64,000 nt of DNA from Candidatus Acidiferrales bacterium (GCA_035532785.1 DATKQJ010000027.1:1886-65885); one strand, 5' to 3'; positions 21,459 to 51,400 are shown, counted from the first letter of the stretch. Program-made: numbers and translations. The notes: generated by a model not told the origin, from the sequence alone.

Positions 21459-22370
21459 TCAGATCGCAAGACCGGCCATTTTGGCGAGGACGGAAAAGAG
21501 GATCGAAAAATCCTCCTCTTGCCATCCCAGGGCGGCCGCACCACTCAGCATCTGGCTGGTCATGGCTGCGGTGGGGAGCGGCACCGAGAGCCGCCGCGCC
21601 TCTTCCAGAATCAGGTCCAAGTCCTTCTCCATCATCCGCGCCGAGAACGGCGCCGGGTGCGGCATTTCCAGCGTGAAGGCGGCTCGGAATGCCAGCGCCG
21701 CCGACATCGTGGCGCTCTGGGTCAGGACGGCCAGGGCGACCGAGCGCGGAATGCCCCCCTTCTCGGCCAGCGCCAGGCCCTCGGCCAGGGCCATGAACGG
21801 AACGGCCACCTGGATGTTGGCAGCCAGCTTCATCAGCGCGCCCTGGCCCACCTCGCCGACGTGGGTCACGGCCCCGCCCAGGTCCAGCAGAATCGGCGCG
21901 ACCCGGGCGGCGGCGGCGGCCGATGCCCCCATCATGAACGAGGCGCTCCCCGACCCCACCGCCCGCGGCGAACCCGAGATTGGCGCGTCCACCAACTCGG
22001 CTCCGCGCGTCGCCACCAGCGGGGCAAGCTGTCGGATGGCGGCTGGACCAACCGTGCTCAGATCGACCAGCAAGGACCCAGGTCCGAGGCCCTCCAGCAG
22101 CCCCCCCGGACCCTCGCAGACGGCCCGAAGGGCGGTTGCGTCGCTGACCATGGTGAAGGTGATGTCGACCTGGGCGGCCACCGCGCAGGGGCTGTCGGCC
22201 CACATCATGCCGAGTGCCACCAAGGCCTGACCGCGGGCGGCGGTGCGATTGTGACCGAGGACCTGGTGGCCGGCCTCCATCAGCCGCTTGACGATGGGAA
22301 TTCCCATGGTGCCGAGCCCGACGAACCCCAGCCCCGACCTCCGAGCGTCGGCCTGGACTCGATCACCCAC
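21459..22370 (-). CDS. NAD(P)-dependent oxidoreductase, 3-hydroxyisobutyrate/6-phosphogluconate dehydrogenase family
   Basis: LGFVGLGTMGIPIVKRLMEAGHQVLGHNRT (Rossmann GxGxxG), DAPISGSP, and a C-terminal helical domain (KDLDLILEEA). Confidence 0.85.
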   Translation of the reverse strand: MGDRVQADARRSGLGFVGLGTMGIPIVKRLMEAGHQVLGHNRTAARGQALVALGMMWADSPCAVAAQVDITFTMVSDATALRAVCEGPGGLLEGLGPGSLLVDLSTVGPAAIRQLAPLVATRGAELVDAPISGSPRAVGSGSASFMMGASAAAAARVAPILLDLGGAVTHVGEVGQGALMKLAANIQVAVPFMALAEGLALAEKGGIPRSVALAVLTQSATMSAALAFRAAFTLEMPHPAPFSARMMEKDLDLILEEARRLSVPLPTAAMTSQMLSGAAALGWQEEDFSILFSVLAKMAGLAI

Positions 22371-32947: not shown

Positions 32948-33314
32948 CTAGCAGCCCGTCCGAGTAAGACTTTGCGATAGGGATGGGCCGGGCCTGAGCT
33001 GCAGGCGAGGGCGTGTTATTGCTGTGTATTCGTGTCGCGCGCCGGGTGCGAGGCCGGTTTTCGGGCCTGGGAGTCGGTTGGAGTAGGCAATCTCGGTGCC
33101 GCCGGTCATCTCCAGGCGGCCTGCAGCTTGCAGAGGTTGTGGCCGGTGCAGTGGAGGAGCCATTCCGCCCGGCAGTTCTCCTCGCCTCGCAGTAACAACC
33201 GGACGTTGGTCTTGGTCGTAGGGCAGGTAGGTCTTCTGCATTGCCACATTGCCCCAGCCCTCGCGCGCGCGGGCGCGAACTCCCCGGCCTAGTCTTACTC
33301 GGACGGGCTGCTAG
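32948..33314. mobile_element. MITE-like, internally deleted IS remnant bounded by perfect 24-bp inverted repeats
   Basis: ctagcagcccgtccgagtaagact (32948-32971) is the exact reverse complement of agtcttactcggacgggctgctag (33291-33314). The outermost CTAG on each side could be a 4-bp target duplication. The interior holds a transposase C-terminal remnant. Confidence 0.6.
33106..33288 (-). pseudogene. transposase C-terminal remnant (IS1182/IS5-superfamily-like)
   Basis: The minus-strand frame reads ...TTKTNVRLLLRGEENCRAEWLLHCTGHNLCKLQAAWR*. This matches the conserved C-terminal pattern RF-LRG-xKV-xEW-L-C-xHNL-KL of IS1182-type DDE transposases. No N-terminal or catalytic part is present. Confidence 0.5.
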
Positions 33315-38427: not shown

Positions 38428-39719
38428 GCCGTCGGCTCCAGGGAATCGGCCACGGCACGACCGCTAAGAGCCAGGGGCAGGGCCAAGCGGAAGACGTTCG
38501 CGACCAGGAGTAGAACGCCGCCCGCATAGACCGCGCCAGCGCCGCGCACCAAGGCCGCGTTGACCACCAGGAGGCCACTCAGAACGCCCACAAAACCGGT
38601 CAGGAGCAGTGCGAATGAGGACCAAGCCAGGCGCTCGTCGACCAGCTCCCGGAGCAGCGGCACGGGCCGATCGCCTGCCACGCCGCCGAAGCGATGCAGC
38701 CAGTTCAGGAAGGGCAGAATCTTATACGACTTGCCCGCGACCGCAAAGCCGAACCAACCCGCCAGGGCCGCGAAACCATAGGCCACCACCCAGCTTCGGC
38801 CAGGCTCGCGGCCGGCGGCCAACACCAGGCCCAACGACGCGGCCACCAGCAGCGCCGCCAGCGAGACGAAGGTATGCCACTGCTCAATCGAGAACTGCCT
38901 CCGACGCCGGGTTCGCAGCAGCAATCCCATGTCCAGAACGTGGAGGGCGGCAGAGATGGTGAGAACGGCCGCGAAAGCGCTCACGGCCAAACTTCCGGGA
39001 GCCGCCAGCAGACTCACGACCAGCCCTAGTAGGCCCACATTCCAGAGGCCGAGATTGGCCAGCGTCAAACCTTGGCCATGACCGCGAGCGAGCGCGAAAA
39101 GCTCGGTCAACTTGTAGGAGACGCCCATCAGGGTCAGACCCAACCAGCCCGCCAGACCCAAATGGACGTGGGCGGCCAGCATGGAATTGCTGACGTCAAA
39201 CCACTGGAAGCGCCAGTTGAGGGCGTAGACGAAGCCGAAGGCGATGGTCGCGACCAGCCAGACCAGCCCGGCGATCACGTAGAGCACGGTCGGGTGCCAG
39301 CGTGGAATGGTGGGGACGCTGCGGAACATCTGAACGCAGAAGTGCAGGATTGCCCCGACGGTGAGAGACCCGAAGATGGCGACTCCGCTCGTCCAGTTGA
39401 AGTAGAAACTGGGGATGAAGCCGACGACGCCGGCGCTCAGCACCCAGTAGTTCCAGCGGCCCAGGCGCGGCGAGTGCACGGTTCCGCCGAGGGCGACCGG
39501 AAACAGCTGGTAGAGCGCACCGAACATGGTCATGGTGATCCAGCCCAGCACGGCCAGATGGGTCAGAGCGAAGACCTGGGGATCGTCATTGGTGATGACC
39601 AAGACCGGGGCCAGCCAGACCACACCCAGAGCGAAGAGGGCAAAGGCCACCAGACCGGTGGCCAGATAGCGGCCGGGGAGGTCGGCCCCGGGCGATCGAG
39701 TCGCTTGGACGCCGATCAT
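38424..39719 (-). CDS. 12-TM integral membrane protein, distantly heme-copper-oxidase subunit I-like (function unknown)
   Basis: 431 aa with about 12 hydrophobic helices. The motif GW-x6-G-x2-Y-(Q/K)-(L/I) occurs three times at ~135-aa spacing (helices 2, 6, 10). An AAHVHLG H-x-H occurs in helix 6, with further intramembrane His residues. Confidence 0.7.
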   Translation of the reverse strand: MIGVQATRSPGADLPGRYLATGLVAFALFALGVVWLAPVLVITNDDPQVFALTHLAVLGWITMTMFGALYQLFPVALGGTVHSPRLGRWNYWVLSAGVVGFIPSFYFNWTSGVAIFGSLTVGAILHFCVQMFRSVPTIPRWHPTVLYVIAGLVWLVATIAFGFVYALNWRFQWFDVSNSMLAAHVHLGLAGWLGLTLMGVSYKLTELFALARGHGQGLTLANLGLWNVGLLGLVVSLLAAPGSLAVSAFAAVLTISAALHVLDMGLLLRTRRRRQFSIEQWHTFVSLAALLVAASLGLVLAAGREPGRSWVVAYGFAALAGWFGFAVAGKSYKILPFLNWLHRFGGVAGDRPVPLLRELVDERLAWSSFALLLTGFVGVLSGLLVVNAALVRGAGAVYAGGVLLLVANVFRLALPLALSGRAVADSLEPTA

Positions 39720-39789
39720 GCCAACTGAGTTCGACCGCGAATAATCACTGCCGTTCTAGTATGCATGTTTTTCATCGTACAATTGCTCA
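39720..39789. promoter_or_regulatory. AT-rich divergent promoter/operator region; candidate leaderless start for the ArsR-like gene
   Basis: ttctagtatgcatgtttttcatcgtacaattgctcaATG is strikingly AT-rich for this genome. TACAAT (39778-39783) ends 6 nt before the ATG at 39790, consistent with a leaderless transcript. It contains short palindromes ATGCAT and CAATTG. Confidence 0.35.
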
Positions 39790-40533
39790 ATGCCCGGTGA
39801 CCCCGCCCTCCTGACCCACAAGGCACTTTCCGACGTCAGCCGGTTCCGAATTCTGGAGGACCTGCGCGCGGCGGGGCCGATGGATTCCCGAGAACTCGGC
39901 CGCCGCATCGGTCTACATCCCAACACCGTCCGCTTCCACGTGGAGCAGCTCATCGAGGCCCACCTGGTGCACACCGTCACCGCCCCCATATCGGGACGCG
40001 GGCGCCCACGCGTCCTCTATCAGGCCGAGTCCGATCCCACCGATGAAGAGGAAGGCGGCTATCGACTTCTGGCCCAGATATTGGCCAGCTATCTCGCCAC
40101 CGTCGAGCAACCCAAGGCGGTGGCGGAGAGCGCTGGGCGAGCCTGGGGCGGTTACCTGGCCGCCAAGCCGCAACCCTACTCTGGAATCACTGGTGCCGAG
40201 GCGACGACCAAGATTGTTGAACTGTTCGGAGGGTTGGGCTTCATGCCCGAGGCCGTCGCCGCAGGATCGGATACCCGCGTCTTGCTCCACCGCTGCCCTT
40301 TCCGCGAGGTGGCCCAGTCACACCAGGACGTGGTTTGCGCCGTTCACCTGGGCATGCTGCGGGGCGCGCTGGCGGAGATGGGAGCGCCGCTTGATGCCAC
40401 CGACCTGGAGTCGTTCGTGGAGCCCAATTTATGCATCGCCCACCTATCTGGTCTGGATACCGATGGGCCTGGCTCGGGCGGCGCCAAGCGAACCCCGCCG
40501 ATGCGGTCGCGTTCGTCAGGGTCCGAATTCTAA
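39790..40533 (+). CDS. ArsR/SmtB-like winged-helix transcriptional regulator with C-terminal Cys/His-containing domain
   Basis: LSDVSRFRILEDLRAAGPMDSRELGRRIGLHPNTVRFHVEQLIEAHLV is the ArsR-type HTH. The C-terminal domain contains HRCPFREVAQSHQDVVCAVHLGML. Confidence 0.85.
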   Translation: MPGDPALLTHKALSDVSRFRILEDLRAAGPMDSRELGRRIGLHPNTVRFHVEQLIEAHLVHTVTAPISGRGRPRVLYQAESDPTDEEEGGYRLLAQILASYLATVEQPKAVAESAGRAWGGYLAAKPQPYSGITGAEATTKIVELFGGLGFMPEAVAAGSDTRVLLHRCPFREVAQSHQDVVCAVHLGMLRGALAEMGAPLDATDLESFVEPNLCIAHLSGLDTDGPGSGGAKRTPPMRSRSSGSEF

Positions 40534-40992
40534 CCCGGCCCTAGGACGGCGAAGGCGGCCACGATTTTCCGCCACCACTCCGCCGGGAGCAGTCTCGGCT
40601 GATGGATGTGAGATCCGCCGGGGGTAATCCTCCGATCGCAATTCGCCCTGAGGGCAGCGTCGACAATCGATGTGAGATCGCTTCTACGGCCCATCGCGGA
40701 CCGGCGGCGTGCGCTCTTCAATCGGCAGCAGCCGCCTGCGAACGTTGGGTTCGGGGTCATCCTCGGCAATGCCTCCCGGCACGGTGGGCCGTGGCGGCCG
40801 AGGTGCTGAGCGAGGATGTCGAGAGCAGCTGGGAACTCCACCGGAAGCAAGCCTGGAATCGGAGTTGATCGTCTGCGCTACACCCCGGCCGGTGCCGTAG
40901 GGGGTGGGGGCCGTTTGACAGCCTCGCGGCGGCCTGATAGGTTACTCGGGCAAACGGCTCCGCGATTTGTTGCGCGGGCCGGGGAGGAAAGC

Positions 40993-41905
40993 GTGGCGAG
41001 AGTCGGATTCGTCGGACTCGGGACGATGGGCGGACGGATCGCGAGACGCTTTCTGGATTCAGGGCACGAGGTCCGCGGCTACAACCGGACCCGTGAGCGG
41101 GCGGCCCGGCTTGTGGCCGACGGACTGATCCTTTGCGATTCGCCGCGGCAGGTGGCAGAGGGCAGAGGGCAGAGGGCAGAGGGCAGAGGGCAGCGAGATC
41201 GTCCTGTCGATGGTCACCAACACCAGCGCCCTAGAGGCCGTCACCCTTGGTGAGGAAGGCATCCTCCAAGGCCTCCGAGAGGACCAGATCTACGTCGACA
41301 TGAGCACCGTCTCGCCTGAGGCGAGCGTCAAGATGGCCCTAGCGGTCAGGGAGCTGGGGGCGCACATGCTCGACGCCCCGGTTTCGGGCAGTGTTGAGAC
41401 CCTGGAAGCAGGCAAGCTGTCGATCATGGTGGGGGGCGATCCGGCCGTCTTCAATCGGGCGCGGCCCATCCTCCTCGACGTCGGCCCAGTGGTCAACTAC
41501 GTTGGACCCAACGGTCAGGCGGTGCTGATGAAGGTCGCGGTCAACCTTGGACTTGCCGTGCAGATGCTGGCATTGAGCGAGGCGCTCCTGCTCGCCGAGC
41601 GGGGCGGCATCGACCGCAAGACCGCCTTCCAAGTCCTTTGCGACAGCGTCATCGCCTCACCCATGATCAAGTACCGCGGTCCGTTTGTTTTTGGGCTCCC
41701 CGAGGAGCCCTGGTTCGACGTCCACATGATGCAGAAGGACATGTTGTTGGCCCTGGAGGCGGCGCGCAGGCTCGAAGTTCCGATGCCGACCACCGCGGTC
41801 ACCAACGAGATGCTGACCGCGGCCAGCGGCATGGGCTATGGCGACGAGGACTTCGCCGCCCTATTCCACACCCTGGCCCGCATGTCGGGGGTGCAGGATG
41901 TCTAG
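40993..41905 (+). pseudogene. 3-hydroxyisobutyrate dehydrogenase-family oxidoreductase, frameshifted within a heptanucleotide repeat
   Basis: GTG 40993 (GGGGAGGA upstream) gives VARVGFVGLGTMGGRIARRFLDSGHEVRGYNRT...SPRQVAEG in frame 1. The conserved continuation SEIVLSMVTNTSALEAV...DAPVSGS... is in frame 2 (track ORF 41210..41905). The switch point is the repeat at 41154-41193. Confidence 0.75.
41154..41193. repeat. tandem heptanucleotide repeat (GGCAGAG) x 5.7 inside a coding region
   Basis: ggcagag ggcagag ggcagag ggcagag ggcagag ggcag, counted directly. Removing one unit (7 nt) or four units (28 nt) restores the reading frame. Confidence 0.95.
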
Positions 41906-41973
41906 ATCTCACCACCCCAAACGCCGAGGACGGCGCGCGCGGCTCACGCCGCCATCTCGGAGGGGGTGACCCA

Positions 41974-43278
41974 ATGGGGATGAAGACCAAGACGTTCGGC
42001 ATCAACGGAACCGACTGGGAACAACGGGTTGACTACGACCGGCTCCGCACTCAGCGGCTGGGGAGGGTCAAGCGGCTGCTCCTCGAGTCGGAGATGGGCG
42101 CCCTGCTCTGCTTCGACATGAACAACATCCGCTACATCACCGCCACCCACATCGGTACTTGGGCGACGGACAAGCTGGCGCGGTTCACGCTCCTCCCCCA
42201 GCATGACGAGCCGATCATGTGGGACTTCGGCTCCGCGGCCCGCCACCACAAGCTGTACTGCCCGTGGCTGGGCGACGAGAGGTCGCGGGCGGGGATCTCG
42301 ACCATGCGGGGCGCATTTGCGCCCGGCGCAGGCCGGGCTGAGGACGTCGCCCGCAAGGTGCGCATTGAGCTCGAGCAGCGCGGGCTCCTGGGTGAGCCGC
42401 TCGGGGTAGACGTGGTCGAGCCGCCCGTCCTGTTCGCCCTCCAGGCGGAGGGGATCAAGATCGTCGACGCCCAGCAACTCATGCAGCAGGCACGGATCAT
42501 CAAGACTGAGGACGAGATCACCCTCCTCAGCACCGCCTGCATGATGGTGGACGCTGCTTACGACCATCTTTACGAAGCGCTCCGACCTGGTATTCGCGAG
42601 AACGAGTGCGTGGGTCTTGTCGCCAAGGTGCTCTACGACCTCGGCTCTGAAAACGTGGAGGGCGTCAACGCCATCTCCGGGGAGCGCTGCAGCCCGCACC
42701 CGCACGTCTATACCGACCGGGCGCTGCGGCCTGGCGATCCGGCGTACTTCGACATTCTCCACAGCTTCAACGGCTACCGGACCTGCTACTACCGGACCTT
42801 CGCCGTGGGCAGCGCGTCGCCGGCCTTGGTCGACGCCTACAAACGCTGCCGGTTCCTGCTCGACAACGCCATCAGTCGGATCCGGCCGGGCGTGACGACG
42901 TCCGAGGTGGCCGGAATCTGGCCGGCGGCACCGGAATTCGGCTTCCCCGACGAGGAGGCCGCGTTCGCGCTGCAGTTCGGTCACGGCGTCGGCCTCTCGA
43001 TATGGGAGAAGCCGATCTTCAGCCGACTGGTCTCCCTCGAACACCCGGAGGTGATCGAGGAGGGTATGGTCTTTGCGCTGGAGACCTTCTGGCCGGCCAC
43101 CGATGGCTGGTCTGCGGCGCGGATCGAGGAGCAGCTGGTCGTCACCGCCGACGGCTGCGAGTTGATCACTCGCTTTCCGGCCGAGCAACTGCTCATCTCC
43201 GGCCAGAGCTACCGCACCGCAACCGGTCCGCTTGACACCCTGCGCGAGGTCGAATCGCACCGCAACCGGAAAGACTGA
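41974..43278 (+). CDS. M24 family 'pita-bread' fold protein (Xaa-Pro peptidase/creatinase-like), atypical metal site
   Basis: ATG 41974 (GGAGGGGG upstream). GDPAYFDILHSFNGYRTCYYRTF aligns with the PepP motif ...D.G....GY..D.TRTF. FGHGVGLSIWE, VFALETF and ARIEEQLVVT supply the His, Glu and Glu ligand positions. Confidence 0.85.
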   Translation: MGMKTKTFGINGTDWEQRVDYDRLRTQRLGRVKRLLLESEMGALLCFDMNNIRYITATHIGTWATDKLARFTLLPQHDEPIMWDFGSAARHHKLYCPWLGDERSRAGISTMRGAFAPGAGRAEDVARKVRIELEQRGLLGEPLGVDVVEPPVLFALQAEGIKIVDAQQLMQQARIIKTEDEITLLSTACMMVDAAYDHLYEALRPGIRENECVGLVAKVLYDLGSENVEGVNAISGERCSPHPHVYTDRALRPGDPAYFDILHSFNGYRTCYYRTFAVGSASPALVDAYKRCRFLLDNAISRIRPGVTTSEVAGIWPAAPEFGFPDEEAAFALQFGHGVGLSIWEKPIFSRLVSLEHPEVIEEGMVFALETFWPATDGWSAARIEEQLVVTADGCELITRFPAEQLLISGQSYRTATGPLDTLREVESHRNRKD

Positions 43279-43340
43279 GCGGTGGAGCTTGAGGCGATCA
43301 TGCCCGCCGACCCCGGACATCAGTCTGCCAGGAGCGGGCG

Positions 43341-44507
43341 GTGAGTTTAGCCGAGGCCGGGGAGCGGGTGTATCCGCGCTTTACGGCGTTGGAGTTCGAA
43401 CGCCGACACGGTGTCGTCCGCGCGGAGATGGCCTCTGCCGGCCTGTCCGTGCTGGTCGCTTTCGGTAACCGGGCTTCGTCCCACGAGGTCCAGTACCTCT
43501 CCAATTTCCCGGTCACCTTCGACGGGGCGCTGGTCTTCCCACTCGAAGCGGACCCCGTCCTCTTGGTCCGCTACCCCAACCACGTCGCCAATGCCCGCCG
43601 AGTCGGAATCGTGGCCGACGTGCGCCGACTGAGCGATGACGTCTGCTCGAGCGTCGCCTCCACCCTCGTCGAGAGACACCTGGGGGGGCGGATCGGGCTC
43701 GCCGGACCGGTCTCCTACCAGCTCCGCGACGCACTCGCCAGGGAACTGACCGGGGTCGAGTTGGTCGATTTCGGCCCCCGCCTGACCGCGATGCGGCGAG
43801 TCAAGAGCGAGGAAGAGATGGGTTTCATCCGCCGCGGGGCGGCGCTCACCGACCTCGCGCTGGCGGCCCTGGTCAGCGAGGCCCGGGTGGGGATGACCGA
43901 GCACGACCTGGTGGCGATCGTCGAATCCGCCTACCTCTCCCTCGGCGGCACCACCCATATCCATTTCATCGGCTCCACCTCGATGGCCGATCCAGACCTT
44001 TGCGCTCCCGCCCAGACCCCGTCCGGCCGGCGGCTCCGGGCCGGCGACGTGGTCCTGACCGAGATCAGTGCCCAATATCACGGTTACTGGGGGCAGGTGC
44101 TGCGCACCCTGTCGGTGGCCGCCGACCCGATTCCCCGATACCAGCGGATGCACGATCTCGCGGTGGAGGCATTCGAGCGCATCATCGCTCTGATCCAGGC
44201 GGGCACGCGCAGCGAGGTCGTGCTGGACGCCGCCGAGCTCATCCACGACGCCGGCTTCACCATCTACGACGACCTCGTCCACTGTGCGGTGGGCGGTGTC
44301 TACGCGCCCTACCTGCGGACCCGTCGCACGGCGCTCGGGCCAGGATCTTCCTTCACCTTTGACGAGGGGATGGTGATCGTAGTCCAGCCGAACGTGATCA
44401 CCCCGGACGAGCGGAGCGGGGTCCAGTGCGGAGAGATGTTCCGGGTCACCGCGAGCGGAGTAGAACCGCTCCATCGGGCCCCACGCGGTTTCCTGCGACT
44501 GGGCTGA
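43341..44507 (+). CDS. M24 family 'pita-bread' fold protein (creatinase/prolidase-like), degenerate metal site
   Basis: The N-terminal creatinase/prolidase-type domain is followed by GDVVLTEISAQYHGYWGQVLRTL, MVIVVQPNV and QCGEMFRVT. This is the M24 layout with several ligand positions substituted. Confidence 0.8.
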   Translation: MSLAEAGERVYPRFTALEFERRHGVVRAEMASAGLSVLVAFGNRASSHEVQYLSNFPVTFDGALVFPLEADPVLLVRYPNHVANARRVGIVADVRRLSDDVCSSVASTLVERHLGGRIGLAGPVSYQLRDALARELTGVELVDFGPRLTAMRRVKSEEEMGFIRRGAALTDLALAALVSEARVGMTEHDLVAIVESAYLSLGGTTHIHFIGSTSMADPDLCAPAQTPSGRRLRAGDVVLTEISAQYHGYWGQVLRTLSVAADPIPRYQRMHDLAVEAFERIIALIQAGTRSEVVLDAAELIHDAGFTIYDDLVHCAVGGVYAPYLRTRRTALGPGSSFTFDEGMVIVVQPNVITPDERSGVQCGEMFRVTASGVEPLHRAPRGFLRLG

Positions 44508-45085
44508 GCCTTCGCTCGGCGCCGGCTCCCCGAGTGCTCGCTCGCGGTCCTCTGACCAGCGCCCGAGCCTATATAGATCGGATCTGCCCTCCTGGCTACG
44601 GGCGGAACGCGACCCAATTGATGTGAAGCATCCATATGAGGTGCTATTGAAGCAGCTGTCGTCGCGATGCCAGGAGCTTCGGAGCCAGGCGACGCGTCTG
44701 TGAACAAGAATCGAGCGGGCCTGGGGCTTCCCAACAATCTGGAGATTGTTCAGCTGGATCTGGACGGCCCCACGGCGACCGCCCAAATGCCGTGCCCTCG
44801 GCTCCCGCTCCTATAAACGCGCCTCCGCCATCTTCGCGGCAAGCCAGCGCTCCGGCTCGAGGACGGACACGCCACCGCCGATCCGGTCGGTGGCCCATCC
44901 TGCCCCAACACTCGGGAGATACATAACCCTGGTGGGGTTCGGCAATTCCTATTCTTCAGCCGCAGGCTGCGGTTGACCCGATGAGTGTGCGCCCGATCGA
45001 CACTTGAGTTGGTCCGGCCGCCGAGCAGAGAAATTGCCATCTGGCCGGGCACCCCGACCCCATGGACTGCTGCCAGTGGGGCCAG

Positions 45086-45565
45086 TCAGGGTATTGCCCG
45101 AGGCGCCTGACCGCCGTGATCGAGCAACCCCGTCACGCGGTCCAGGAACCCGCCCACCGAGGATTCCGCCAGTTTATGTAGAACGGCCTGATCGATGGAG
45201 GCGCCCAGCCTGCCCCCCGGGGGTGAGTACCGAGCGTCGAGGCGGAGACTGCATCCCGCCGGCTGGCGGCGTTCCAGGCGAAGGTGCCCCTCAAGCTCGG
45301 GATACAACTCAGCATGTCGGGCTGCCCGCCATTGAATGCGCACCGTCACCCCGTAGGCGTACCGCTCGACATTGCCGGTGGTGACCACGATGCGCCGCCG
45401 AATTCGGCGCCCGGCCTGCTCGACTGAAATTTCAGCCGTGTTTGCCTGGCCCTGACGCGTGAACCCGGGCAACCATTCTTGCGGCCCCGCCCGAAGCACG
45501 CTCTCCAGAGTTTCATAGGGCCCGCTCAGGACCCGAAGCAGATGAAGTTCAAACCCCTCCCGCAC
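45086..45565 (-). CDS. hypothetical protein (159 aa; possibly SRPBCC-like)
   Basis: The ORF has balanced amino-acid composition, unlike surrounding shadow ORFs, and a GTG start. No motif recognised with certainty. Confidence 0.45.
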   Translation of the reverse strand: MREGFELHLLRVLSGPYETLESVLRAGPQEWLPGFTRQGQANTAEISVEQAGRRIRRRIVVTTGNVERYAYGVTVRIQWRAARHAELYPELEGHLRLERRQPAGCSLRLDARYSPPGGRLGASIDQAVLHKLAESSVGGFLDRVTGLLDHGGQAPRAIP

Positions 45566-48453: not shown

Positions 48454-51400
48454 ATGGTGCCGGATCTGAAAAACTCGTTGCTCAAGGCCCACCAATTCTT
48501 CCGCCAGGGACCCGTATCGGCCGAGGGCTGGAGCGAGCTGGTGGCCAAGGACCGGGATTGGGAGTCGTTCTACCGGGACCGATGGCAGCACGACAAGGTG
48601 GTGCGCTCCACGCATGGCGTCAACTGCACCGGCTCCTGCTCCTGGAACGTCTACGTCAAGGACGGCCTTATCACCTGGGAGTCACAGGCGGTTGACTACC
48701 CCTCGGTGGGACCCGACATGCCCGAGTACGAGCCGCGCGGCTGCCCCCGAGGAGCCTCCTTCTCCTGGTACACCTACTCGCCCCTGAGGGTCAAGTACCC
48801 CTACGTACGGGGCAGCCTGCTGAAGATGTACCGGGAGGCTCTGATCCAGCATCCGGATCCTGTCGACGCCTGGGCCTCGATCGTCGAGGATCCCGAGCGC
48901 TCGGCACTTTACAAGTCGCAGCGCGGCAAGGGTGGTTTCGTGCGGGCGAGCTGGCAGGAGGCGCGGGAGATGGTCGCCGCCGCCCACGTTCATACGATCA
49001 AGAAGTACGGCCCCGATCGGGTCGCCGGGTTCTCCCCGATACCCGCCATGTCGCAGGTCTCTTACGCGGCCGGGACCCGATTCTTGTCGCTTATCGGTGG
49101 GGTCATCCTCAGCTTCTACGACTGGTATGCGGACTTGCCACCGGCTTCACCACAGGTCTTCGGCGACCAGACCGACGTGCCCGAATCGGGCGATTGGTGG
49201 AACGCCGGCTACCTGATCATCTGGGGTACCAACCTGCCCATCACGCGCACCCCCGACGCCCACTTCATGACCGAGGCCCGCTACCGAGGACAGAAGGTGG
49301 TCGTGGTGTCGCCCGACTACTCCGACCACACCAAGTTTGCGGACGATTGGCTGCCCGCCCAACCCGGCACCGACGGTGCCTTGGCCATGGCCATGGGGCA
49401 CGTGATCCTGAAGGAGTTCTACGTCGAGCGCGAGGTGCCCTACTTCCAGGATTACGCGCGCCGCTTCACCGACCTGCCCCTCCTCGTCACACTGCGCGAG
49501 CGAGAGGGGGCGTACGTGCCAGACCGATTCCTGCGCGCCTCCGACATTGGATCAGCGGAGGAGCACGCCGACTGGAAGACGGTCGTGTTCGACGAGGTGA
49601 CGCAGGCTCCGGCGGTGCTCAACGGTTCGGTCGGGCACCGCTACGGGCAGGAGGCGGGAAGGTGGAACCTCAAACTGGGGGCGGTGCGGCCGACGCTGAG
49701 CCTGTACGGCCAGGGCGGAGATGCGGCGCTGGTTGAGCTCCCGCGCTTCGACGTCGGCGACACCGAGGGGGGCGCTTCATTGTCACGGGGGGTGCCGACC
49801 CTGAGCATCGGTGGCCAACTCGTCACCACCGTCTTCGATCTCCTTCTGGCCAACTACGGGGTGAGCCGCGCCGGATTGCCCGGCCAGTGGCCCTCCGGAT
49901 ACGAGGACTCGGCTCCCTACACACCCGCCTGGCAGGAGGAGGTGACGTCGGTCGATGCCCGGCTCGCGACCAAGATCGCGCGCGAGTTCGCTCGCAACGC
50001 CGAGCTCACCGGCGGCAGATCGATGATCTGCATGGGGGCGGGAACCAATCATTGGTTTCACTCCGACCTCATCTACCGCAGCTTCCTGTCGCTGCTGACG
50101 CTGTGCGGGTGTCAGGGCGTGAACGGCGGAGGTTGGGCCCACTACGTCGGACAGGAGAAGGTTCGGCCCCTGACCGGCTGGCAGACGATGGCCTTCGCGC
50201 TCGACTGGGTCCGCCCCCCCCGCCACCAGGAGAGCACGCCCTGGTTCTATCTGATGACCGATCAATGGCGGTACGAGGCCTTCAGCGCCGAGGATCTGTC
50301 CTCCCCCCTGGGGCGTGGGCTCTTTCGGGGACGCCAGTTCGCCGATTGCAACGCGCTGGCGGTTCGCCTGGGATGGATGCCGTTCTACCCGAGCTTCGAT
50401 CGCAGCCCCCTGAGCGTGGTCGAGGAGGCGGAGAAATCCGGCACCGAGGTCGAAGAGTTCGTGGTCGAGGAGTTGAAGCAGGGTCGGCTCCACTTCGCGG
50501 CCGAAGACCCCGATGCGCCTCAGAACTGGCCGCGCGTTCTAACCGTGTGGCGCTCCAACCTGCTCGGATCATCCGGCAAGGGCCACGAATACTTCTTGAA
50601 ACACCTCCTGGGTACCACCGACCCCGCCGTGCGGGCGCCGGAGACGCCCCCCGAGCTCAGGCCTGAGGAGGTGGTCTGGCGGCAAGAGGCGCCGGTCGGG
50701 AAGCTCGATCTGCTGACCTCGATCGATTTTCGAATGACCTCCAACTGCCTCTTCTCGGACGTGGTGCTTCCGGCCGCCACCTGGTACGAGAAGTACGACA
50801 TCTCCTCGACCGACATGCACCCCTTTGTGCACTCCTTCAACCAGGCCATCCCGCCTCCCTGGGAGGCGAAGAGTGACTGGGATGCATTCAACCTGATCGC
50901 CGAGGACTTTTCGCGGCTGGCTGCAGGCCACCTGGGGGTCAGGAGGGACCTGATCGCCGCGCCTCTACTCCATGACACGCCGGATGAGATCGCACAGCCG
51001 ATGGGACGGGTTCTGGACTGGAAGGCGGGCGAGGTGGAGCCGATTCCGGGCCGGACCATGCCCAAGCTGGTGGTGGTTGAGCGCGACTACGCCGCCATCG
51101 CCGAAAAGATGAAGGCGGTGGGTCCGCTCTTGGACGAGCAGGGGAGCAGGATCAAGGGAGCCAGCTGGAAACCGACCGAGGAGATCGACTACCTCGCCCG
51201 CAAGCACGGGGTCGTCCGGGGAGGCGCGGCCGATGGCCGACCCCGCCTGGACCGGGCCGAGCAGGTCGCCGAAGCAATCCTGGTCCTTTCCGGAACCACC
51301 AACGGCCGCCTGGCGGTGGAGGGTTTCCGCTCCCTCGAGAAGCTGACCGGCCTGGAGCTGGCCGATCTGGCGCAGCCGAGGGAGGGAGACCGGATCAGCT

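Follow-up and report, generated by a model that had tools for sequence, protein, structure and literature searches.

An apparently young, length-variable heptanucleotide repeat frameshifts a HIBADH-family dehydrogenase gene in a clone of uncultured Dormibacterota

Tandem repeat tracts that turn genes ON and OFF by replication slippage are textbook features of host-adapted pathogens; to our knowledge, they have rarely been documented in free-living, uncultured, high-GC bacteria of the soil type, or in plain metabolic genes. In one high-GC bacterium, Mycobacterium tuberculosis, a metabolic gene, glpK, reportedly undergoes frameshifts in a mutation-prone homopolymer. The status of this homopolymer-frameshift class as phase variation is debated, with both reversibility and rate uncertain (PMC11868660). 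The same review, by Bayliss, Clark and van der Woude (2025), sets three criteria for phase-variable loci, namely a genetic change at one locus, reversibility and a minimum rate of switching, and warns against applying the label where reversibility has not been shown; a contingency locus is defined there by localised hypermutation, without a requirement for reversibility (PMC11868660). The LSSRs of prokaryotic genomes (Mrazek et al.) are known to us as summarised in that review. Among heptanucleotide systems, neuO, the capsule O-acetyltransferase gene of prophage CUS-3 in Escherichia coli K1, carries an AAGACTC tract within its ORF, and a full-length product requires a copy number that is a multiple of three; copy numbers range from 3 to 53 among genomes, with 65.6% of 64 genomes in the OFF state (PMC13001214). 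Haemophilus influenzae has heptanucleotide SSRs in a TonB-dependent receptor gene (AACAACC) and upstream of hmw1A/hmw2A (TGAAAGA), which vary by strain from 1 to 13 or more copies and yield frameshifted as well as intact ORFs (PMC2651432).

The tract described here has its closest analogue in neuO. Both consist of a 7-nt unit in the 5' part of a coding sequence, permit a full-length protein at every third copy number, generate in-frame alleles with a variable number of 7-aa inserts and differ widely in copy number. The neuO tract, however, is long (3–53 units), old and widespread, resides in a prophage gene for a surface structure, and has measured switching and phenotypes for both states, whereas the present tract is short (3.7–11.7 units), restricted to one clone and located on the chromosome, in a metabolic gene of an uncultured, free-living bacterium. 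The H. influenzae SSRs share the 7-nt unit, the variable copy number and the coexistence of intact and frameshifted ORFs, but belong to surface and iron-uptake loci of a host-adapted pathogen with many SSR loci per genome, in contrast to a single locus in a soil-type genome of 66% GC. With the glpK class the tract has in common a high-GC genome and a metabolic gene toggled by indels in a slippage-prone sequence; that class, however, involves mononucleotide runs in organisms without MutS/MutL, as opposed to a 7-nt unit in a genome that encodes both proteins. Like the LSSRs, as far as the summary describes them, the tract is an SSR in a non-pathogen with a total length far above random expectation; the LSSR surveys appear there as single-genome catalogues, whereas in the present case a population allele series and an unexpanded sister lineage are seen directly. 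The kind of locus is thus already known, and what is new is the phylum, Dormibacterota, and the class of gene.

The locus was found in a 64,000-nt stretch of DNA, hereafter the window, from a genome assembly of 2.11 Mb (46 contigs, 66% GC, 95% complete, 0.25% contamination) that is evidently a metagenome-assembled genome (MAG). The features relevant to the analysis, all in window coordinates, are the following.

21468..22331, minus strand: paralogous HIBADH-family gene, about 45% identical to the dehydrogenase (tblastn on the genome; C27:23353-24216)
39790..40533, plus strand: upstream regulator of the ArsR/HTH_20 type (Pfam, NCBIfam)
40993..41253, plus strand: N-terminal dehydrogenase piece, with GTG start, GxGxxG Rossmann motif, repeat, 20 out-of-frame codons and TGA stop, giving an 86-aa stub
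41154..41193, plus strand: heptanucleotide microsatellite (GGCAGAG) x5.7, from Tandem Repeats Finder, sequence and allele counts
41192..41905, plus strand: C-terminal dehydrogenase piece of 237 codons, in the +1 frame relative to the start, with PF03446 positions 57–161 and PF14833
41974..43278, plus strand: M24 "pita-bread" protein, 434 aa (Pfam PF00557)
43341..44507, plus strand: creatinase/prolidase-like M24 protein, 388 aa (Pfam PF01321 and PF00557)

The array is perfect (100% matches, Tandem Repeats Finder score 80) and reads GGT, five units of GGCAGAG, GGCAG and then CGAG. Translation of the dehydrogenase from its GTG start at 40993, which has GGAGG 4–12 nt upstream, gives MARVGFVGLGTMGG...SPRQVAEG and then enters the repeat; frame 1 continues through it as ...SPRQVAEGRGQRAEGRGQRDRPV... 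to the stop at 41253, while the conserved continuation SEIVLSMVTNTSALEAV... is open in the +1 frame up to 41905. The NAD_binding_2 profile (PF03446) is divided between the two pieces, with positions 1–55 in the stub and 57–161 in the C-terminal piece, followed in the latter by NAD_binding_11 (PF14833); this sharing out of one profile indicates a single beta-hydroxyacid (HIBADH-family) dehydrogenase gene that is split exactly at the repeat. Tandem Repeats Finder, translation and Pfam therefore agree with the preliminary description, made from the sequence of the window, in which the repeat was said to frameshift a HIBADH-family gene with a frame-1 stop at 41253. Residues 1–57 of the stub are identical to those of an intact 294-aa allele, P0003, and the C-terminal 237 residues have 100% protein identity to the intact alleles, P0003 included. 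The window carries an OFF allele, with 5.7 copies.

Membership of the HIBADH family is indicated by PF03446, PF14833 and the GxGxxG motif, and the closest solved structures are the Geobacter enzymes 3PEF/3PDU (E about 1e-48). A specific enzyme assignment, such as tartronate semialdehyde reductase or 3-hydroxyisobutyrate dehydrogenase, failed on the NCBIfam equivalogs, every one of which has a curated cut-off above the score of the dehydrogenase (best 227 bits against 340.75). The 45% paralogue in the same window is a possible functional back-up.

The dehydrogenase and the two M24 genes lie on the same strand with gaps of 68 and 62 nt, a terminator-like site was not found in this region, and a non-coding gap of 459 nt separates the dehydrogenase start from the ArsR/HTH_20 regulator; from this layout a three-gene operon is plausible. 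The 434-aa M24 protein is 72–92% identical across many phyla and occurs in a conserved cluster with the dehydrogenase (tblastn; 59 of 84 related loci), the usual order in relatives from several phyla being dehydrogenase, E1 alpha, E1 beta, M24. In this genome the E1 orthologues are on a separate contig (C6:1101-3025), rather than between the dehydrogenase and the M24 gene as in most relatives, so that the three-gene row is a derived arrangement.

Since the C-terminal piece retrieved a 100%-identical 294-aa protein, the 90%-identity cluster of the latter, with members of 294, 294, 301, 255, 252 and 231 aa, was traced to the encoding DNA and the repeat units were counted. Five copy numbers are known, as follows (increments relative to the shortest allele, then protein product).

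1.7 copies (GGCAGAGGGCAG), in L023 (JGI), L026 and L028 (ENA) and L027 (Logan): +0 nt, 294 aa, intact
3.7 copies, in L029 (Logan; contig found in three samples): +14 nt, 75 aa
4.7 copies, in L024 and L112 (two ENA assemblies, two samples): +21 nt, 301 aa with RGQRAEG inserted
5.7 copies, in the window: +28 nt, 86 aa
11.7 copies, in L025, which is the same as L113: +70 nt, 100 aa

The alleles with 1.7 and 4.7 copies are in frame and those with 3.7, 5.7 and 11.7 copies are out of frame. Four of the five (3.7, 4.7, 5.7 and 11.7) stand on otherwise almost identical backgrounds, where repeat number alone decides between an ORF of full length (294 or 301 aa for the in-frame numbers) and a stub of 75–100 aa; this is genetic variation at a single locus in the sense of the phase-variation definition. 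The expectation that the frame would be restored by removing one or four units is borne out by natural intact alleles of 301 aa (4.7 copies) and 294 aa (1.7 copies), and the coexistence of in-frame and out-of-frame alleles in nature is the genotype pattern that had been proposed for a slipped-strand ON/OFF tract. Among the expanded alleles, the in-frame share is one of four, or two of seven samples, which corresponds to the chance value of one third. Each copy number is the consensus of one assembler, and some of the assemblies may stem from related samples of one study, as suggested by neighbouring ERZ numbers. The 86-aa stub, used as a query against the protein collection, returned only unrelated fragments of 60–78% identity and no further alleles, and a literature search found no papers citing the sample accessions. 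Exact-pattern scans of metagenome contigs with the left flank, or with the right flank plus two units, gave no match; since that collection may omit records closest to this genome, the result does not bear on rarity.

Among the public gene calls, P0123 (255 aa, window 41138-41905) begins at a non-standard ATT start immediately upstream of the repeat, which it then translates in the second frame. None of the calls of 255, 252 and 231 aa includes the GxGxxG motif, and they are apparently annotation artefacts from a frameshifted gene; in practical terms, the public record lists these N-terminally truncated proteins of broken alleles as ordinary genes.

Short tandem repeats are a known source of misassembly in MAGs, and the 5.7 copies of the window could be an error introduced by consensus calling or assembly of a mixed population whose actual members are in frame. 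We regard such a miscount as improbable. The tract is only 40 nt long, below the usual final k-mers and reads, and independent assemblies give 3.7, 4.7 (twice), 5.7 and 11.7 copies on the same background; the longest tract, of 82 nt, comes from what its contig name suggests is a k141 assembly, in which the k-mer would span the whole tract. Assemblies of the Logan collection use k = 31, and the 3.7-copy allele (26 nt) is shorter than this, so reads of exactly that length should exist. A one-unit error in the window's count would still leave the locus polymorphic. The coexistence of in-frame and out-of-frame alleles argues against a single assembly error and equally against a fixed, old pseudogene.

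The contigs with expanded tracts are all nearly identical to the window and form a clone of about 99.99% identity. The window was compared with L112 (4.7 copies) over 18.8 kb and with L113 (11.7 copies) over 20.7 kb. Both differ from it in repeat length, in a shared synonymous SNP at 41747, for which the window is the odd one out, and in a 20-nt indel at 33283; L113 has one private SNP, at 49320, and between L112 and L113 there are no differences beyond seven repeat units and one SNP. At least three changes of tract length thus stand against two SNPs in a common background of about 19 kb, in which the repeat is the fastest-changing site. Taken at face value, these counts imply a rate of length change that would exceed the per-base substitution rate by orders of magnitude. 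The 33283 indel, where L112 and L113 have 20 extra bases (CCGGCCTAGTCTTACTCGGA) inside 32948-33314, is the sole length difference besides the repeat in these 19 kb.

The same comparison bears on the reading of the locus as an ordinary fixed pseudogene, in which a one-time expansion inactivated a gene that is now decaying. The window allele is indeed out of frame, with the protein cut before most of the Rossmann fold, and the E1 alpha and beta genes that adjoin the dehydrogenase in most relatives sit elsewhere in this genome. The copy number, however, is not fixed, and the allele series by itself largely refutes this reading; the same background also has an in-frame allele of 301 aa, and the 237 codons downstream of the tract encode exactly the residues of the intact alleles (100% identity), with synonymous differences only. 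A fixed pseudogene is therefore very improbable.

The unexpanded state is preserved in close relatives. A sister lineage, represented by four contigs from four samples and 99.3–99.4% identical to the window, has 1.7 copies and an intact 294-aa gene throughout, and is marked by GAC in place of GAT 15 nt upstream of the tract. Between the window and this lineage, the dehydrogenase shows 4 synonymous and 0 non-synonymous differences, and the presence of only synonymous differences means that the gene has not decayed; the first M24 gene shows 5 synonymous and 1 non-synonymous. For the second M24 gene (43341-44507) the counts, which are small, are 1 synonymous and 4 non-synonymous, and this gene may be under relaxed or changed constraint. 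A third lineage (P0009, 98% aa identity) reads ...QVAEGSEIV and is thus unexpanded. The fourteen orthologues at 62–84% identity have neither repeat nor proto-repeat, the closest of them having GCG GAG GGG AGC at the site; in named genomes the best dehydrogenase orthologue belongs to a Candidatus Dormibacteraceae MAG (84% aa) and the next to a Dormibacterales MAG (71%). These comparisons place the 1.7-copy state, previously suggested to be ancestral, in the sister lineage and show that distant orthologues lack even the proto-repeat. A 21-mer of three units was absent from 60 other genomes of the same family, and a microsatellite class shared by the family was accordingly ruled out (0 of 60 with the motif). 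Persistence across diverged strains, as in neuO, was not found either, the tract being present only in the one clone of about 99.99% identity.

On the basis of these data, the tract is probably best described as a young, locally hypermutable microsatellite, and a simple path for its origin can be proposed. In the ancestor, the codons GCA-GAG-GGC-AGC (Ala-Glu-Gly-Ser) would by chance have formed a 12-nt proto-repeat (GGCAGAG GGCAG), as a result of synonymous codon choice in this species; the tract of the window equals this proto-repeat, GGCAGAGGGCAG, plus 28 nt. In one clone the proto-repeat would then have expanded, and gone on changing in length, by replication slippage (slipped-strand mispairing), with 7-nt units gained and lost far faster than point mutations accrue. 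Each unit would shift the frame by one base, leaving the gene readable at 1.7, 4.7, 7.7 and so on copies only; each step of three units would put RGQRAEG into a surface loop, and other lengths would give a stub of 75–100 aa.

Chance is a poor explanation for the tract as it stands, since about 8e-13 occurrences of 33 consecutive lag-7 matches are expected in a genome of 2.11 Mb and 66% GC. In the whole genome it is also the sole perfect repeat with at least 3.5 copies and a period above 4 that is not divisible by three. Two adjacent, intact open frames on C20, of 841 and 561 codons, encode MutS and MutL, and a search for NucS in this 95%-complete genome was negative. Because MutS and MutL are intact, a mutator genome was rejected as the explanation; together with the lack of a comparable tract elsewhere, these genes point to localised hypermutation and not to a genome-wide mutator. 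In E. coli, MutS recognises loops larger than about 4 nt poorly, which would let 7-nt slippage evade repair, and the 7-nt loops formed here may in the same way escape an intact MutS/MutL system.

A further candidate for a destabilising element is a G-quadruplex, which may form at 4.7 or more copies. Read as (GGGCAGA)n, the tract provides a canonical G3N4 quadruplex motif on the sense strand from 4.7 copies up, and ViennaRNA, run with G-quadruplexes enabled, places a three-tetrad quadruplex in the minimum-energy fold for 4.7, 5.7 and 11.7 copies and none for 1.7 and 3.7. As a lead, and not a finding, the predicted quadruplex could promote instability or impede translation.

In an AlphaFold2 model of the 301-aa allele (mean pLDDT 90.7) the fold is maintained, and the RGQRAEG insert (residues 58–64) falls in coil between the helix at 51–56 and the strand at 67–70, a position that, by standard Rossmann topology, we take to be the sheet edge lying opposite the cofactor site. 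Because the modelled fold is kept and the insert falls in coil, the protein would presumably tolerate the 7-aa insert and the in-frame 301-aa allele is plausibly active.

The two halves of the gene abut without loss of sequence, as would also be the case if, on the repeat, programmed ribosomal frameshifting or transcriptional slippage allowed the out-of-frame alleles to be expressed. This abutment is all that speaks for recoding. The tract contains neither a homopolymer nor a known slippery motif, an RNA family match is lacking (no Rfam match within 39500-45500), and the alleles would need unlike shifts, +1 for 5.7 and 11.7 copies and -1 for 3.7, which makes recoding barely credible.

The explanation that we favour, with moderate confidence, is that a slippage tract arose recently, and essentially by accident, in a dispensable gene; it resembles a contingency locus without being, or yet being, a selected switch. 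The main alternative is a selected phase-variation (bet-hedging) switch, in which the tract is kept because stochastic ON/OFF expression benefits a free-living soil bacterium in a fluctuating environment, the switched unit being the dehydrogenase and perhaps, via lost translational coupling, the two downstream M24 genes as well. Such a switch is compatible with the presence of ON (4.7) and OFF (3.7, 5.7, 11.7) alleles on one near-clonal background, in proportions similar to those of neuO, a proven heptanucleotide switch. The perfect purity of the tract, the otherwise undamaged coding sequence with 0 non-synonymous changes and the position of the dehydrogenase at the head of a same-strand row without a terminator-like site fit it too. 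Against it, the tract is very young, found neither in the 99.3% sister lineage nor in any relative; it is the single such tract in the genome, so that there is no "phasome"; a metabolic gene with a 45% paralogue is an atypical contingency target; and the in-frame share does not depart from the one third expected by chance. Polarity of the Rho type on the downstream genes is likewise unsupported. The Rho RNA-binding domain (PF07497) was not found in the 95%-complete genome, and silencing of the M24 genes in OFF alleles by Rho-dependent polarity was dropped as a candidate for this reason. We consider a selected switch possible, though on the unlikely side. Still, perfect repeat purity and the coexistence of ON and OFF alleles are equally the picture given by selected phase-variable loci such as neuO, and neutrality is therefore no more than probable.

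The idea of a contingency or phase-variable switch, as first put forward, therefore stands in part: the ON and OFF alleles on a near-clonal background uphold it at the level of the genotype, while the restriction of the tract to one clone, its uniqueness in the genome and an in-frame share no higher than by chance make a selected role less likely. Membership in the phase-variable class cannot be claimed, whereas the looser description as a contingency locus, defined by localised hypermutation, appears to fit the genotype data. A more elaborate version, in which a selected, G-quadruplex-forming contingency switch allows free-living Dormibacterota to hedge between expressing and silencing a catabolic gene row, is doubtful in our estimation; if true, it would be the first phase-variable locus in the phylum, and would allow the origin of a contingency locus in a 12-nt proto-repeat to be dated against the unexpanded sister lineage.

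Returning to the accidental tract that we favour, the public allele series and the ancestor-like, unexpanded sister lineage together amount to a natural snapshot of the birth of a hypermutable tract from a chance 12-nt proto-repeat. The locus could serve as a strain-level VNTR marker, and could also help to test whether contingency loci take their raw material from accidents of this sort.

Some further observations concern the gene cluster and other repeats of the genome. The dehydrogenase-E1 alpha-E1 beta-M24 cluster (L030, L031 and 57 further loci) extends over Chloroflexota, Actinomycetota, Armatimonadota and Dormibacterota. The identity of its M24 protein (72–92%) is unusually high; scores for DddP/DoeA-like proteins are weak only, and none of the NCBIfam equivalogs passes its cut-off for the 434-aa protein. 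Near-perfect tandem duplications with periods indivisible by three also occur at C30:4809-4854, C12:6247-6296, C10:42549-42598 and C12:8670-8719, their units being 14 nt (x3.3), 16 nt (x3.1) and, in two cases, 22 nt (x2.3). The 14-nt duplication lies between two minus-strand open frames and, on that strand, repeats a GGA-rich segment followed by ATG. No tandem array in the genome is stronger than the one at C18:31193-31494, whose 18-nt unit, TCAGCCACCGGAGCCGCA, is present in 16.8 copies with 96% identity; as its period is a multiple of three, any reading frame through it would be kept.
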